Assembly (NCBI GenBank): GCA_017003895.1
Contig: GCA_017003895.1_4520.1
Strand: one strand, 5' to 3'
DNA: 64,000 nucleotides
Source of the DNA: a phage
This document shows, piece by piece, positions 2,681-17,778 of this stretch. The notes under the pieces were generated by a model. That model did not search any database, was not told where the DNA came from, and saw only the letters and a program-made list of their open reading frames with translations. How positions within the stretch are numbered: the stretch's first letter is position 1; each line of letters starts with the position of its first letter. Both the position numbers and the translations under genes were made by a program.

Positions 2681-3790
2681 ATGATTAGTGTAAAAGAAAT
2701 AGTAGTAGATGCAAAGGATTTAAATAAAGCAATCCCAGTCTCAGAAAGTGCTGGGCAAAGCACTAAAACCGAAACAACTACTAAAACTTATGTTGCCCAA
2801 TTTCCTACAGGAAGAGCAGCCGGAAATGACTCCACAGGAGACTTCCAGGTAACGGACCTTTATAAGAATGGATTATTATTTACCGCGTACAATATGTCTG
2901 CACGCGATTCAGGATCCCTCAGGAATTTACGTCCGGCGTATGCCGGGACTTCATCTAATGGTATCATATCAGATTTAACTGATAACGTGAAAGATGCAGT
3001 GACTAAATTCTCAAATGGCTTGCTTCCTGCCGGAGCTAATAAATCTACTATAAATAAAACTCCTGTTGCTAATATACTTTTGCCACGTTCCAAATCTGAC
3101 GTCGATACAACTTCACATCGTTTTAATGATATCGGTGATAGCCTTATTACTAAAGGTGGAGGTACTGCTACGGGTGTTTTAAGTAACATTGCTTCTACTG
3201 CAGTCTTTGGTGCATTAGATTCTATTACTCAAGGGCTTATGGCTGATAATAACGAACAGATTTATACGACTTCTCGTAGTATGTACGGTGGTGCTGAGAA
3301 CCGTACCAAAGTCTTTACATGGGATTTAACTCCGCGTTCAACTGAAGACCTTATGGCTATTATAAACATTTACCAGTATTTTAACTATTTCTCATATGGT
3401 GAGACCGGTAAATCACAGTACGCCCAAGAGATTAAAAGTTATTTAGACGAATGGTACCGTTCAACGTTTATTGAGCCTATGACGCCAGATGATGCAGTAA
3501 AAAATAAGACATTGTTTGAAAAGATTACTGCGTCATTAACAAATGTATTAGTTGTAAGCAACCCTACAATTTGGATGGTTAAAAACTTTGGTTATACATC
3601 TAAATTTGATGGATTAACTGATGTATTTGGTCCATGCCAAATTCAAAGCGTACGTTTTGATAAAACTCCAAATGGACAATTTAATGGTCTTGCTGTTGCT
3701 CCTAACTTACCGTCAACATTTACGTTAGAGATAACAATGCGAGAAATTATTACATTAAACCGTTCTTCACTTTATGCGGGGACTTTCTAA
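2681..3790 (+). CDS. 48: Baseplate tail-tube cap gp48
   Basis: 369 aa (T4 gp48 about 364 aa); synteny 29-48-54. Confidence 0.7.
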   Translation: MISVKEIVVDAKDLNKAIPVSESAGQSTKTETTTKTYVAQFPTGRAAGNDSTGDFQVTDLYKNGLLFTAYNMSARDSGSLRNLRPAYAGTSSNGIISDLTDNVKDAVTKFSNGLLPAGANKSTINKTPVANILLPRSKSDVDTTSHRFNDIGDSLITKGGGTATGVLSNIASTAVFGALDSITQGLMADNNEQIYTTSRSMYGGAENRTKVFTWDLTPRSTEDLMAIINIYQYFNYFSYGETGKSQYAQEIKSYLDEWYRSTFIEPMTPDDAVKNKTLFEKITASLTNVLVVSNPTIWMVKNFGYTSKFDGLTDVFGPCQIQSVRFDKTPNGQFNGLAVAPNLPSTFTLEITMREIITLNRSSLYAGTF

Positions 3791-4752
3791 TGTACTCTTT
3801 AGAAGAATTTAATAACCAAGCTATAAATGCAGATTTCCAACGAAACAATATGTTTAGTTGTGTATTTGCTACTACACCATCGACTAAATCATCTTCACTA
3901 ATTTCGTCAATTGGTAGTTTTGCTTATAATAACTTAGGGTTGGATTCTGATTGGTTAGGATTGACTCAAGGTGATATCAATCAGGGCGTAACAACCCTGA
4001 TTACAGCAGGAACACAGAAATTAATTCGAAAATCAGGTGTAAGTAAATATCTGATTGGAGCAATGAGTCAACGTACGGTACAAAGCTTGTTAGGTGAGTT
4101 CACAGTAGGAGCTTATCTGATAGACTTCTTCAATATGGCATATAATAATACAGGTTTAATGATTTATTCTGTAAAAATGCCTGAGAACCGATTATCTTAT
4201 GAAACGGATTTCAACTATAACTCCCCGAACATCCGAATTACCGGTCGAGAAATGGACCCGTTAGTAATAAGCTTTAGAATGGATTCCGAAGCATCCAACT
4301 TTAGAGCAATGCAGGACTGGGTAAACTCAGTCCAAGACCCTGTAACAGGTCTTCGCGCTTTACCACAAGACGTCGAAGCAGATATTCAGGTTAATTTACA
4401 TGCACGAAATGGTTTACCGCATACCGCTGTCATGTTCACCGGATGTATTCCTGTTAGTGTCTCTTCTCCTGAGTTAACGTATGATGGTGATAATCAGATA
4501 ACAGTTTTTGATGTAACATTTGCTTATCGCGTTATGCAATCAGGTGCTGTAAATAGACAGGCTGCTTTAGAATGGTTGGAATCAGGACTTATTAGTAGTG
4601 TTTCAGGAATGTTTGGAAATAATCAGAATGATTCTGGTCTAGGAAGTGCAGTATCAAGACTTTCTAGATTAGGTGGGACCGCTGGAGGTGTGTCTAATAT
4701 AAACACATTGACAGGTGTGGTGAATTCTACATCAAGAGTTTTAGGACTATAA
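3790..4752 (+). CDS. 54: Baseplate tail-tube initiator gp54
   Basis: 320 aa, same as T4 gp54; start overlaps the gp48 stop; followed by a hairpin terminator. Confidence 0.7.
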   Translation: MYSLEEFNNQAINADFQRNNMFSCVFATTPSTKSSSLISSIGSFAYNNLGLDSDWLGLTQGDINQGVTTLITAGTQKLIRKSGVSKYLIGAMSQRTVQSLLGEFTVGAYLIDFFNMAYNNTGLMIYSVKMPENRLSYETDFNYNSPNIRITGREMDPLVISFRMDSEASNFRAMQDWVNSVQDPVTGLRALPQDVEADIQVNLHARNGLPHTAVMFTGCIPVSVSSPELTYDGDNQITVFDVTFAYRVMQSGAVNRQAALEWLESGLISSVSGMFGNNQNDSGLGSAVSRLSRLGGTAGGVSNINTLTGVVNSTSRVLGL

Positions 4753-12908: not shown

Positions 12909-13024
12909 TTTAAATTCTCAATTCGAGATAATATTTAGTAGCCACGTTCGTCTGAATTTCACCTTCTTTCGACAAGTCTCTCAGTTGTAGGCTACCGCTT
13001 AGAAGAGTGTTCTCTTCATATAGT

Positions 13025-13032
13025 TATTTATA
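13025..13032 (-). promoter_or_regulatory. Late promoter TATAAATA (minus strand) upstream of rIII
   Basis: Plus-strand tatttata is an exact reverse complement of the T4 late promoter consensus; about 115 nt upstream of the rIII start. Confidence 0.5.
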
Positions 13033-13365
13033 TCACTTATAAAGACACGGAATAGCTTTATAGTGGCATGTTACGAATTTCTGTTTAATTTCTTTAGGTT
13101 GTTTAAGTCCCAAAGCCACAAATGGATGTGGAACATTTCGAATTTGTCCAACTGGTAGTGGAGTCAAATCACCGACTTCAACAAAACCTTCAGGAACATC
13201 AGGACCTACAGAATGAACTACACATAGTTCAGGAACTTCACCTTGAACACGTTTACCAATCACAAGTCCTGATTCGGTAACTTCTTCATCACCTGCTTGA
13301 GCGGGTTCAGAAACCAGAATGACATATTCACCAACAGCACGAATTGGGAGTTGTACTTCAGACAT
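13033..13365 (-). CDS. 31: Co-chaperonin gp31 (GroES-like, required for major capsid protein folding)
   Basis: 110 aa; near-identical along its length to my recollection of T4 gp31 (MSEV...[29 protein letters not shown]...[15 protein letters not shown]). Confidence 0.85.
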
Positions 13366-13394
13366 CTTATTTCCTTGTTGTTTGACGATAGATT

Positions 13395-13420
13395 AATAAT
13401 ACCATACTATTCGTAAAGCA
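13395..13420 (-). promoter_or_regulatory. Candidate MotA-dependent middle promoter for gene 31
   Basis: Minus strand has the MotA box TGCTTTA (plus taaagca 13414-13420), a 13-nt spacer and TATTAT (-10). Confidence 0.4.
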
Positions 13421-13422
13421 TA

Positions 13423-13731
13423 TTACATAAGAAGCAAACGTTCTACCGGAGTACCATCAACCGAAATTACTTTATCAAGGCGGAAAGAACGCCACTGACC
13501 TAACTTGGTATCGAATGCTCGAACTGATTCACGAGGTTCAGAACGAACTTCTGATGCCGGATTGTTATTTTCATATTTGACTTCAAGTTCATCGCGAGAA
13601 GCAAACATAGTGCGTACCTCACCGTTAGCCTTTTCAAATACAACACAATGAACGCCTACAGACAGAATAGTTTTAATACGTTCACGAAGAACCATAGTTT
13701 CTTGTTCAGTTAAAATCATATTATTCACCAC
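13423..13731 (-). CDS. Hypothetical protein (31.1 position)
   Basis: 102-aa ORF between cd and 31. Confidence 0.5.
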   Translation of the reverse strand: MVNNMILTEQETMVLRERIKTILSVGVHCVVFEKANGEVRTMFASRDELEVKYENNNPASEVRSEPRESVRAFDTKLGQWRSFRLDKVISVDGTPVERLLLM

Positions 13732-14302
13732 AAAAGTTTCGGATTTGTTCCCAATTCAGAGAACGAAGATTATTACGAGAGTACTGAATTACTTCAATAC
13801 CGGCTTGTTTTAGAATGTCTGCCCAATTTTCAGGAGATCGGTCGTATAATTCTGCATATACAACCTTTTTAATACCTGACTGTGTAATAGCTTTAGTGCA
13901 ATCAGGACACGGAGAAAGCGTCGTATATAACGTAGCACCTTCAATAGAATTACCTTTACGAGCTGCAAATAAAATTGCATTCAGTTCAGCATGGATTTCA
14001 TTATTAGCAGACCATGCACTATGAGCGGCCCGATGTTCTTTAGCCAAAACAAAATTATCCACCCGTCCAAATGCTGTAGTGCCTTCTTTATGCCCAGCAA
14101 CGATGACCGGGCTTGGTTTATTCTTCAACCAACCGTTTTCGGATGCATGTTCGCAACAGTTTGTACCACCTGAAGGAGAGCCATTATAACCTGTAGAAAT
14201 AATGCGTCCATCTTTTTCAATGACGGCACCAACTTTCCATGAACAACATTTTGATTCTTGAGAAATCAAATAAGCAATTTGAAGATATGTGCTAGCTTTC
14301 AT
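13721..14302 (-). CDS. cd: dCMP deaminase
   Basis: 193 aa, same as T4 Cd; zinc-binding deaminase motifs HAELNAI and SPCPDC present. Confidence 0.9.
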   Translation of the reverse strand: MKASTYLQIAYLISQESKCCSWKVGAVIEKDGRIISTGYNGSPSGGTNCCEHASENGWLKNKPSPVIVAGHKEGTTAFGRVDNFVLAKEHRAAHSAWSANNEIHAELNAILFAARKGNSIEGATLYTTLSPCPDCTKAITQSGIKKVVYAELYDRSPENWADILKQAGIEVIQYSRNNLRSLNWEQIRNFCGE

Positions 14303-15294
14303 TATTGAACCTTATTAATATAAGTTAACAGCTCTTTAGTTTGTTCCCAACTGATGCACGCATCGGTAACGGAAACGCCATAGGACATATTATCAGAAAT
14401 TTTTTGATTTCCTTCATGTAGGAATGATTCTATCATAATTCCTTTGACCAAATCATTAGCTGCTAAATTTTTACCAATACCAATTTGATTGCTATAATGC
14501 CCAGCAGCGTTTGCATGGCTACAGTCAACCATTACATAATGATTCAGACCTACTGCACTTGCTTTGTTAGAAGCTTCTTGAATATCAGAAGAATGATAGT
14601 TCGGGCCGTTGGTCCCGCCACGCAATACGATATGCGTATTCTGATTACCTTCAGCTTCAACAATGCCTACAGTACCATCGACGTCCATACCCATATACCG
14701 ATGAGGCCTGGCGGCACTATACATCGCGTCTGTAGCTACTTTAATAGAACCATTGGTTGCGTTCTTGAAGCCTACGCACATCGGTAGACCTGAAGCAATT
14801 TCACGATGTGTCTGACTTTCAGTCGTACGGGCGCCAATAGCAACCCATGAGAAAATACCAGAAAGATACTTAATCGTGAATGGGTCTAATACTTCAGTTG
14901 CTAATGGAAGTCCCATACGTAGAAGTTTACGACACAATGTTCGTGCAACTATAAGACCGTGGTTCATATCAAAACTTCCGTCAAGATATGGATCATTTAC
15001 AAGACCTTTCCAACCTACGGTAGTTCGAGGCTTTTCAAAATAAACGCGCATCACTAACAGAACATTAGGAAGACGAGTTTGAAGTTCAGCCAGACGTTTG
15101 CCGTATTCAACAGCAGCAATAGGGTCATGAATTGAACAAGGACCTACAACGATAAGTTTGCGTGGGTCTTCACCGTTCATAATCGAATTAACTTGTTCGC
15201 GATGAGAAGCCACTTGTGATGCGTAAGCTTCCGACAAAGGAATAATCTCAGCCAGTTCTTTTGGAGAAATAAGTTTTCTGACGACAGGTAACAT
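14302..15294 (-). CDS. 3-deoxy-D-arabino-heptulosonate 7-phosphate (DAHP) synthase, class I (AroG/AroF/AroH-like)
   Basis: 330 aa; matches my recollection of E. coli AroG motifs (VGPCSIHDP, MRVYFEKPRTTVGWKGL, GARTTESQTHRE, VGFKN, ESFLHEGNQ); stop overlaps the cd start (TAATG). Confidence 0.85.
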   Translation of the reverse strand: MLPVVRKLISPKELAEIIPLSEAYASQVASHREQVNSIMNGEDPRKLIVVGPCSIHDPIAAVEYGKRLAELQTRLPNVLLVMRVYFEKPRTTVGWKGLVNDPYLDGSFDMNHGLIVARTLCRKLLRMGLPLATEVLDPFTIKYLSGIFSWVAIGARTTESQTHREIASGLPMCVGFKNATNGSIKVATDAMYSAARPHRYMGMDVDGTVGIVEAEGNQNTHIVLRGGTNGPNYHSSDIQEASNKASAVGLNHYVMVDCSHANAAGHYSNQIGIGKNLAANDLVKGIMIESFLHEGNQKISDNMSYGVSVTDACISWEQTKELLTYINKVQ

Positions 15295-15414
15295 AACAAT
15301 CCTTAGGAGATATAAACAGATTCTGATTCAACAATACCTTTAACCGGATTAGACAGGCTAAGTTGGTAGTGCTCAGATTTATGACCATTCTCGATAGTAA
15401 TGAGATAGCTCTCA

Positions 15415-15651
15415 TTATAGTGTTCCATATACTCGAGTTGCTTCAACAAGACCATCACTGCCTAATTTAAGATTAGTAATTTGGTCACCATCTTTAGGAT
15501 TAACGATTATGAGAAAAGAACGTGGAGATTCTTGAATAACTCGTAATGTTGCATCTTGGAAACGTTCAGACACTTTATTGATGAGTGCTTGAGCAAATTC
15601 TTTTACTTTAATCTGAAATTCGTGTACTGTAATTGGGTTTTCACTTAGCAT
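15415..15651 (-). CDS. Hypothetical protein
   Basis: 78-aa ORF preceded by an early promoter. Confidence 0.5.
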   Translation of the reverse strand: MLSENPITVHEFQIKVKEFAQALINKVSERFQDATLRVIQESPRSFLIIVNPKDGDQITNLKLGSDGLVEATRVYGTL

Positions 15652-15679
15652 TTCTATTTCCTCATTTGTTGGTAGAGTT

Positions 15680-15709
15680 ATAGTATCACAACTCCACCAC
15701 GTTGTAAAC
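15680..15709 (-). promoter_or_regulatory. Early promoter, GTTTAC-N18-TACTAT
   Basis: Plus gtaaac at 15704-15709 and atagta at 15680-15685; imperfect inverted repeat (ggtagagtt/aactccacc) flanks the -10. Confidence 0.5.
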
Positions 15710-15711
15710 CA

Positions 15712-15987
15712 TTAAATTGCTTTGCATTCAATTTTTTGTGTACCGAAATTGATATCACATTGGATAACTAAATCGCCGTCAAGATCAAATACCACGATGA
15801 CGTGTGCAGACCCAGGGAGAAGAGTAATAGCAATAGAATCTACTTGGTCTGGGAGCAAAGCATTGAGTACATGAGTTACTTGAGCATGAACTCTGAGTTC
15901 GGCTGCATTATCAAGCACTTCAAACATATTATTAGCAATAATCTGACTGAAGACTACCTTTACAATTTCAGAATAAGTTGGGAACAT
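15712..15987 (-). CDS. Hypothetical protein
   Basis: 91-aa ORF in operon orientation. Confidence 0.45.
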   Translation of the reverse strand: MFPTYSEIVKVVFSQIIANNMFEVLDNAAELRVHAQVTHVLNALLPDQVDSIAITLLPGSAHVIVVFDLDGDLVIQCDINFGTQKIECKAI

Positions 15988-15994
15988 AATTACC

Positions 15995-16219
15995 TCAGTG
16001 CACAGTATTTACTTTAACTCGAACAACAAATCGCTCGGTTGGTTCACCTACAGGAACAAACTCTACATGATATTCACCTTTGTAACGAGTATTCAGATCA
16101 TTACGAATTCCTGCGAGTTTGTTGATTAATGTAGGACTCATATTAAGTCCCACTAGTTTACGAAGCATTTTGTATGCTTCATCTTCGATTTCATGATGTT
16201 TATCGTACATAGTTTTCAT
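15995..16219 (-). CDS. Hypothetical protein
   Basis: 74-aa ORF in operon orientation. Confidence 0.45.
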   Translation of the reverse strand: MKTMYDKHHEIEDEAYKMLRKLVGLNMSPTLINKLAGIRNDLNTRYKGEYHVEFVPVGEPTERFVVRVKVNTVH

Positions 16220-16391
16220 TTAACCATTCAATTGCCTGGTCGACGTTATCAAATATACCGCCGTCCAAACGTTCTTCATGCTCATAGTCCAGCACATCAA
16301 TACCGAACTGTCCATTTACTAAAGGCCAGGCAACAAACAAATATTCTTTATGCTGTTCGATGGCCTCAATCACTTCATATAATCGTTTCAT
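16200..16391 (-). CDS. Hypothetical protein
   Basis: 63-aa ORF immediately downstream of pseT. Confidence 0.45.
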   Translation of the reverse strand: MKRLYEVIEAIEQHKEYLFVAWPLVNGQFGIDVLDYEHEERLDGGIFDNVDQAIEWLNENYVR

Positions 16392-17478
<1,087 letters not shown>

Positions 17479-17479
<1 letters not shown>

Positions 17480-17778
17480 TATTTGATTCCTAAGAAAGCT
17501 TCAAGAATACGAATGTTGAGTTCGCGCCGGTCTTTATTAATTTCAGCAACGTTTTTATTAATTGACGTACTTCTAACGTTTGAAGAAATAAATTTAATCA
17601 TATGACTTTTGAGTTGTTGCAAATCCAACCCTTTTTCTTTAGCAGCTTTACGAAGAGCTTTACCTGCTTCATCTAGTGCCTTTGCTGCATCTTTGTCATA
17701 ATCTACAAGTGTCATTCCACGGCAGATATCAATATACTCATCAGACCGTTTGATGTAATTCTCTAGTAATGTTTTCAT
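17479..17778 (-). CDS. Hypothetical protein
   Basis: 99-aa ORF preceded by an early promoter. Confidence 0.5.

Follow-up and report, generated by a model that had tools for sequence, protein, structure and literature searches.

The closest described relatives of the gene considered here are the type Iα DAHP (3-deoxy-D-arabinoheptulosonate 7-phosphate) synthases AroF, AroG, and AroH of E. coli, whose first ~10 residues contribute to the inhibitor site of the neighboring subunit. Q151/Q152 and S180/S181 touch the main chain of the inhibitor, a salt bridge of D155 stabilizes the inhibitor site, and the variants P150L and S180F are feedback resistant (PMC9529685). Phage homologs have been collected as PHROG 5045, which the PHROGs database files under "moron, auxiliary metabolic gene and host takeover." Full-text literature searches found no functional study of the phage gene, only one-sentence mentions of it in Klebsiella phage KLB31 (PMC11845039) and as ORF64 of Escherichia phage phiC120 (PMC8022965). 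Here, we analyze the member of this family that is encoded on the minus strand of a 64,000-nucleotide stretch of phage DNA (GenBank assembly GCA_017003895.1, contig GCA_017003895.1_4520.1; the whole stretch is called the window below), where a 330-aa open reading frame (ORF) lies between the polynucleotide kinase gene pseT and the dCMP deaminase gene cd. It shows no material difference from the PHROG 5045 proteins of Edwardsiella phage PEi20 (gp218), KLB31, and phiC120, which belong to the same family, occupy the same locus, and are 59 to 100% identical. The gene is thus that of an already catalogued phage family and not a discovery; what is added here is the observation of its apparently deregulated inhibitor site.

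A first-pass annotation of the same DNA had called the product a class I, aroG-like DAHP synthase with a set of AroG motifs in order, and all five motifs are present in the translation, from the N to the C terminus GPCSIHDP, MRVYFEKPRTTVGWKGL, GARTTESQTHRE, VGFKN, and ESFLHEGNQ. The class assignment holds, the matches being far above chance. Pfam DAHP_synth_1 (PF00793) matched with an E value of 2.2e-75 (253.5 bits, against a cutoff of 25.5), the NCBIfam equivalog model for aroFGH, TIGR00034, with 428.8 bits (cutoff 173.2), and NF009395 with 457.1 bits (cutoff 343), while PHROG 5045 (phospho-2-dehydro-3-deoxyheptonate aldolase) aligned residues 1 to 330 with profile positions 8 to 337 of 341 (E = 3.2e-181). 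Among solved structures, E. coli AroF (6agm, E = 4.8e-105) is the best match, followed by the enzyme of N. meningitidis and by AroG. The term "aroG-like" fared less well: the protein is a class I enzyme with the AroG motifs, but of the isoenzymes of E. coli MG1655 AroF is the nearest by a small margin (51% identity), followed by AroG (47%) and AroH (44%). The isoenzyme-specific models stayed below their cutoffs (AroG NF006723, 365.6 against 568; AroH NF009396, 385.6 against 463), and in a neighbor-joining (NJ) tree AroF fell with enterobacterial AroF and AroG in another group, with the phage clade apart. The phage protein belongs to none of the AroF, AroG, and AroH lineages.

Alignment with the three isoenzymes, which the first-pass annotation had proposed as a check, found the metal- and phosphoenolpyruvate (PEP)-binding residues intact. 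All four metal ligands are conserved (C53, H260, E289, and D311, equal to AroG C61, H268, E302, and D326), the ten residues binding PEP and erythrose-4-phosphate (E4P) are the same as in AroG (R83, K88, P89, R90, T91, G154, A155, R156, K177, and R225), and the 10-residue catalytic signature is invariant across all 129 aligned homologs. An AlphaFold2 model based on a 55-sequence alignment (pLDDT 94.1, pTM 0.92) was matched by Foldseek to the solved type Iα enzymes 4hso, 1gg1, and 1qr7 (N. meningitidis and E. coli) with TM scores of 0.95 to 0.96 and a root mean square deviation of ~1.4 Å. The protein thus has the predicted fold, the metal ligands, the PEP/E4P residues including KPRTT, and the β6a/β6b hairpin (strands 198–203 and 209–214 in the predicted model) in common with AroF, AroG, and AroH (6agm, 1kfl/1qr7), at 44 to 51% identity. 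It differs from them in being 20 to 26 residues shorter, with the first ~10 residues lost, and in a 5-residue deletion near AroG 284–288 and a 1-residue insertion after the RGG motif. The ORF is, by these criteria, predicted to encode a metal-dependent type Iα DAHP synthase (PEP + E4P → DAHP + Pi), the entry enzyme of the shikimate pathway to the aromatic amino acids, and we have high confidence that the enzyme would be catalytically active, because the profiles, the intact catalytic residues, and the predicted fold agree. 3-Deoxy-D-manno-octulosonate 8-phosphate (KDO8P) synthase (KdsA) or another PF00793 activity was considered and rejected, as only DAHP synthase families matched in NCBIfam and the KPRTT motif for E4P is present.

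The allosteric region, which had been pointed out beforehand as worth inspecting, proved to be systematically remodeled. All 31 phage sequences have 9 to 13 residues before the equivalent of AroG P20, compared with 17 to 54 in 94 of the 95 cellular homologs. Because the N terminus is so short, the equivalents of AroG D6/D7 and of the N8/I11 region of AroF are gone, and with them the segment that AroF, AroG, and AroH lend to the inhibitor site of the adjacent subunit. We also screened all 329 aligned positions for clade-diagnostic residues. A position qualified if a single residue was common to at least 90% of the phage sequences, a different one was common to at least 80% of the cellular sequences, and fewer than 5% of the latter had the residue of the phages. 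Seven positions were diagnostic (AroG equivalents in parentheses): I141 (P150), K142 (Q151), G146 (D155), I147 (L156), P171 (S180), Y200 (F209), and A214 (T223). Four of them, those equivalent to P150, Q151, S180, and F209, are among the 10 feedback-resistance positions of AroG taken from PMC9529685 (hypergeometric p = 1.5e-5). At these four positions, which in the phage clade are I, K, P, and Y, the 95 cellular homologs retain P150 in 87, Q151 in 93, S180 in 92, and F209 in 92 cases.

With four of the seven diagnostic changes on resistance positions and the catalytic residues intact, the divergence of the clade is therefore concentrated on the allosteric site. The loss of the N-terminal residues together with the changed inhibitor-binding side chains therefore makes feedback insensitivity the most likely outcome, and the sequences are most economically explained by a loss of feedback from Phe, Tyr, or Trp, which we consider fairly probable. 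Engineered feedback-resistant forms of AroG carry P150L, S180F, D146N, L175D, or F209A; the phage clade is naturally changed at four of the same positions and is truncated at the N terminus as well. The phage substitutions differ from the engineered ones in being other residues (I, K, P, and Y) that have been fixed by selection across genera, and the resistance of the phage enzymes is a prediction. Engineering of the N terminus of DAHP synthase was reportedly the subject of work in 2014.

The phage proteins form a lineage of their own, the 31 sequences being monophyletic in all 60 NJ bootstraps. Their nearest cellular proteins are at most 55% identical, are 341 to 388 aa long, and come from unrelated phyla, plus enterobacterial AroF. 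The GC content at third codon positions (GC3) of the gene is 29.6%, compared with 29.3 ± 4.4 for the ORFs of the window and 50 to 57% for E. coli aroFGH, and in every genus GC and GC3 follow the phage's own genome (e.g., Proteus phage PM2, 32.5%; a Klebsiella phage, 44.3%). The ratio of nonsynonymous to synonymous substitution rates (dN/dS) against six other genera was 0.15 to 0.23, a range to be read with reserve, and to that extent a point against our interpretation, since dS is saturated (>1) in these inter-genus comparisons. On composition and substitution pattern, the clade is ameliorated and under purifying selection, and it appears to have been long resident in T4-like genomes. Two other origins were tried and rejected. 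Recent capture from an enterobacterial host is contradicted by an identity to host AroF (51 to 52%) equal to that with proteins of Planctomycetota and of Pontiella, by the phage-like GC3, and by the monophyly; a decaying or pseudogenized gene is contradicted by the dN/dS of 0.15 to 0.23 and the intact catalytic residues.

The sister of the phage clade in the NJ tree, a placement that we regard as tentative, is a pair of bacterial metagenomic proteins, P0109 and P0110 (the latter at L013 8001..9083), with DctPQM and UvrC neighbors. They carry Q-A-G-P-H at AroG positions 146/150/151/180/209. This may be a cellular lineage whose regulatory site has changed, or the grouping with the phage clade may be a long-branch artifact.

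Distant DAHP synthase-like genes occur as well in unrelated phage records that are not T4-like, namely, MT837466.1 (L020 ~3004..4002; 35% identity) and Aeromonas phage HJ05 (OQ594355.1, L019 3899..5062; 38% identity). The HJ05 protein, which was independently acquired, has P for S180 and H for Q151, which hints at convergence, and reads KPRTGQGW instead of KPRTTVGW. Its changes may mean that the inhibitor site was lost convergently or that the protein has another activity.

As to the function of the phage enzyme, we lean toward the interpretation that a DAHP synthase expressed early and insensitive to feedback maintains the flow of carbon into the shikimate pathway of the host during infection. 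The enzyme would be made early, after the phage shuts off host gene expression, at a stage when derepression through TyrR and TrpR could no longer respond because host transcription is blocked. With its DAHP synthase deregulated, the phage would then drive PEP and E4P toward the remaining shikimate enzymes of the host, AroB to AroC, which are intact, much as the feedback-resistant aroG-fbr and aroF-fbr alleles act in production strains, and chorismate and the aromatic amino acids would thereby be sustained for phage protein synthesis. Other auxiliary metabolic genes of phages that act at pathway entry points likewise supply one rate-controlling host enzyme and not a whole pathway; the difference is that the target here would be the synthesis of aromatic amino acids and chorismate, not nucleotide, photosynthetic, or NAD metabolism.

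The expression signals are in keeping with such timing. The gene is probably transcribed in an early/middle cd.3-cd.2-DAHP synthase-cd unit: the T4-type early promoter-like element upstream of it is conserved with RB69 and with the gap in T4 where the T4 record notes Pe133295, and the minus strand has no terminator-like site from this element to cd. A T4 late promoter (TATAAATA) as the driver of the gene was rejected, as there is none upstream and the nearest, at 13025–13032, lies downstream. The sole MotA-box-like site on the coding strand of the pseT-to-DAHP synthase interval is inside pseT (16675–16699). Over the window as a whole, sequences resembling the MotA box (TGCTTNA-N11-13-TANNNT) numbered 13 against 3.45 ± 1.86 expected, and none of the shuffles reached 13 (e.g., 13396..13420 and 16675..16699, both on the minus strand); this excess is consistent with T4-type middle promoters across the window.

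Several further observations weigh against this interpretation. Eight of the 14 inhibitor-site positions are invariant in the clade, compared with 34% of positions overall (p = 0.058, which is suggestive), and the remodeled positions are fixed and not drifting, a pattern which suggests some retained function of the site better than it does simple decay. P150 is not universal among regulated enzymes, AroH having Gly, the change of F209 to Y200 is conservative, and G202 is the AroF-type residue. The promoter scan overall was not enriched over shuffles (13 found, 14.9 expected), and the literature searches turned up no measurements of activity, inhibition, or expression for any clade member. The gene is also dispensable, since RB69, JK36, and mar005P1 do without it, and any benefit would therefore be conditional. 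Finally, K142 could bind a carboxylate, and the sequence agrees equally well with an altered effector specificity and with a loss of inhibition. The former inhibitor pocket might have been re-tooled, either to receive another effector (e.g., an anionic metabolite, like a nucleotide or pathway intermediate, held by the new Lys) or for a different oligomeric or always-on state. The altered residues may form such a site or impose such a state, and shikimate entry would then be coupled to a phage-specific signal and not to the aromatic amino acids. The seven diagnostic residues are fixed across phage sequences that are otherwise only 55 to 77% identical; even so, we rate re-tooling as unlikely and prefer loss of feedback inhibition.

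It could also be argued that the phage has an ordinary feedback-regulated, AroF-like (Tyr-sensitive) isoenzyme, which would just add DAHP synthase capacity. AroF is the best match both in the PDB and in E. coli (51%), an AroF-type Gly stands at the AroG S211 position and a Pro at the M147 position, the β6a/β6b hairpin, which is part of the inhibitor site, is kept in the predicted model, and some records carry the annotation "aroF, Tyr-sensitive." However, the N8/I11 region of AroF is absent, and essentially all members of the clade have P151→I, Q152→K, D156→G, and S181→P in AroF numbering, residues that contact the inhibitor or are known resistance positions (PMC9529685). Enterobacterial AroF, moreover, clusters elsewhere in the NJ tree. 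We consider a regulated enzyme of this kind improbable, and the "Tyr-sensitive" annotations are probably wrong.

The first-pass annotation had offered a folate rationale, in which more chorismate would be made available for p-aminobenzoate (pABA) and folate and thereby feed the thymidylate synthase, dihydrofolate reductase, and dCMP hydroxymethylase of the phage. The gene does sit amid nucleotide-metabolism genes and is coupled to cd, with td and frd ~10 kb upstream in the same orientation, and on the metagenomic contig of the homolog P0020 frd and td lie within 6 kb. Specific support for the rationale was not found: in the annotation of a close relative, the 49 kb around the gene hold td, frd, nrdAB, and cd as in T4, with no other shikimate, pab, or folate-synthesis gene annotated there, and hence no pabA/B/C or fol gene alongside. 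T4 and RB69, furthermore, run the same folate-dependent enzymes without the gene. Folate is a catalytic cofactor that is recycled by frd, and for this reason of general biochemistry the demand on the shikimate pathway from folate would be small compared with that from the aromatic amino acids. The cd.2/cd gap is a known variable slot, occupied by cd.1 in T4, and the adjacency to cd may therefore be historical and not functional. A role in folate supply is doubtful in our view.

Equally doubtful is an irreversible sink for E4P and PEP, which would pull the non-oxidative pentose-phosphate reactions (fructose 6-phosphate + glyceraldehyde 3-phosphate → E4P + xylulose 5-phosphate) toward pentose phosphates for nucleotides, or would lower PEP. 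Co-location and translational coupling with nucleotide-metabolism genes would fit such a sink, as would deregulation, and metabolic-engineering reviews tie the supply of E4P and PEP closely to transketolase flux. The proposal is, however, purely inferential, as the sequence does not separate a sink from a product-supply model; one PEP would be wasted per pentose, and RB69 and T4 manage without the gene. The supply of a sugar phosphate for arabinosyl-hydroxymethylcytosine (ara-hmC) hypermodification of DNA, or an action on arabinose-5-phosphate like that of KDO8P synthase, is hardly credible: several carrier genera overlap the phages reported to have ara-hmC (RB69 relatives such as HY126, and Serratia phages) and PF00793 also spans the KDO8P synthases, but RB69, in which ara-hmC was first identified (PMC6024577), is without the gene, which largely refutes the idea, the papers on the ara-hmC pathway do not mention it, and the KPRTT motif and the TIGR00034 equivalog score mark a DAHP synthase, with no KdsA family matched. 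An obligatory link to this DNA modification is rejected on the same two grounds, the lack of the gene in RB69 and the silence of the pathway papers.

A tblastn search placed the gene in 213 phage records, most of which name a DAHP synthase, compared with ~760 records that have a pseT of at least 60% identity. At least 95% identity was found in 140 of the 213 records (RB69/JS98-type phages of Escherichia and Shigella); the remaining ones, at 59 to 77%, are T4-like phages of Enterobacter, Edwardsiella, Klebsiella, Serratia, Erwinia, Proteus, and Providencia. Phages G2285, NicPhage, and PTE-Eco05 encode a protein with 100% identity to that of the window. Comparison of the cd-pseT interval bore out the earlier statement that T4 has no such gene, its interval holding only the small ORFs cd.1 to cd.5, and the gene is not part of a universal T-even core, RB69, JK36, and mar005P1 being without it. 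Among T4-like phages it thus counts as an accessory metabolic gene, outside the core gene set. We regard it as a widespread, little-characterized auxiliary metabolic gene in therapeutically relevant T4-like phages of E. coli, Klebsiella, Serratia, Proteus, and Edwardsiella, the importance of which is modest because it has already been catalogued. If the deregulation is true, these phages would open the most expensive amino acid pathway of the host, a new facet of host takeover of the T4 type, and shikimate-pathway engineers would gain a naturally evolved, selection-tested scaffold for a feedback-resistant DAHP synthase. Natural pairs with and without the gene (JK45 versus JK36; JS98-type phages versus RB69) make the question of fitness directly testable.

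The gene order pseT-...-DAHP synthase-(0 to 2 small ORFs)-cd is found in at least six genera (Mosigvirus-like, Kanagawavirus, Kagamiyamavirus, Marfavirus, Winklervirus, and Bragavirus). The deepest-branching metagenomic members of the clade are also on T4-like contigs, one of which is ordered frd-td-...-pseT-DAHP synthase-cd-ligase. As the first-pass annotation, which had given no strand, had stated, the stop codon overlaps the start of the dCMP deaminase ORF: the TAA at 14304..14302 (minus strand) shares bases with the ATG of cd in the sequence TAATG, from which the two genes are probably translationally coupled. An in-frame TGA lies 12 codons upstream of the DAHP synthase ATG, and because of this codon and the Shine-Dalgarno (SD) sequence at −5, no upstream start is possible. 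A longer N terminus of the enzyme is ruled out by the same two features and by the equally short N terminus in all 31 members of the clade.

Between cd.2 and cd, the window differs from RB69 by an insert (Table 1). In T4, cd.1 fills this slot; in RB69, which shares its genus with the closest relatives of the window, cd.2 directly abuts cd. In a blastn comparison with RB69, both flanks (17498..15400 and 14305..13000) were 97% identical, and their RB69 coordinates were contiguous, with an overlap of 19 bp where the two flanks join. The whole segment is present in 140 records from close relatives, and RB69 (NC_004928.1, L011 7743..8503), Shigella phage JK36 (MK962754.1), and vB_Eco_mar005P1 (LR027390.1) have the flanks alone, at 94 to 97% identity. 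The 51-aa ORF within the segment aligns with the C terminus of cd.2 from PEi20/Entb_45 and not with the RB69-type copy, which is complete and lies directly upstream. We read the insert as the likely recombination scar of a phage-to-phage transfer of a cassette consisting of the 3′ end of cd.2 and the DAHP synthase gene. RB69 may never have had the insert or may have lost it by recombination between the repeats. Such a cassette would move among T4-like genomes by recombination at the cd.2/cd junction.

Table 1. Features at the DAHP synthase locus, with positions in the window
Feature	Position	Strand	Basis or remark
DAHP synthase CDS, type Iα, PHROG 5045 phage clade	14302..15294	-	330 aa, ATG start; profile matches, conserved catalytic residues, AlphaFold2 model
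cd, dCMP deaminase	13721..14302	-	Pfam dCMP_cyt_deam_1, 1.7e-26; start overlaps DAHP synthase stop
SD sequence AAGGA	15300..15304	-	5 nt before DAHP synthase ATG; ribosome-binding site annotated at same place in phage Mizar
~1,094-bp (1.09-kb) segment absent from RB69	14306..15399	-	Donor-type cd.2 3′ fragment, SD, DAHP synthase; blastn
19-bp direct repeat, left copy ATAATGAGAGCTATCTCAT	15400..15418	-	Insert boundary; 16/19 identical to right copy
19-bp direct repeat, right copy ATAATGAAAGCTAGCACAT	14287..14305	-	At DAHP synthase stop/cd start
51-aa ORF, remnant of Kanagawavirus-type cd.2 C-terminal half	15303..15458	-	Partial Pfam DUF7320 match, profile 43-76
cd.2 (DUF7320), full length, RB69-type allele	15415..15651	-	96% aa identity to RB69 type
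T4-type early promoter-like element (GTTTACA, 17 nt, TGTGATACTAT; TG-TACTAT)	15680..15708	-	Consensus scan; cd.3/cd.2 gap, ~390 nt upstream of DAHP synthase
pseT polynucleotide kinase, upstream landmark	16392..17291	-	ORF; annotated pseT in JK45, RB69, Mizar

Another short ORF of 55 aa (MRAIS..., 15248..15415, minus strand) starts at the TAATG that ends cd.2, inside the left repeat, which itself resembles the start of cd (MKAST...). This ORF is likely an incidental product of the junction, not a gene.

The annotation of the locus in GenBank is inconsistent. The DAHP synthase appears as "Tyr-sensitive aroF," "putative aldolase," "phosphate synthase I alpha," or hypothetical, and in some records its neighbor cd goes under the name ribD or tRNA-specific adenosine deaminase. 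Phage JK45 has been assigned to Tequatrovirus, yet its locus is 99.3% identical to the RB69-like window.

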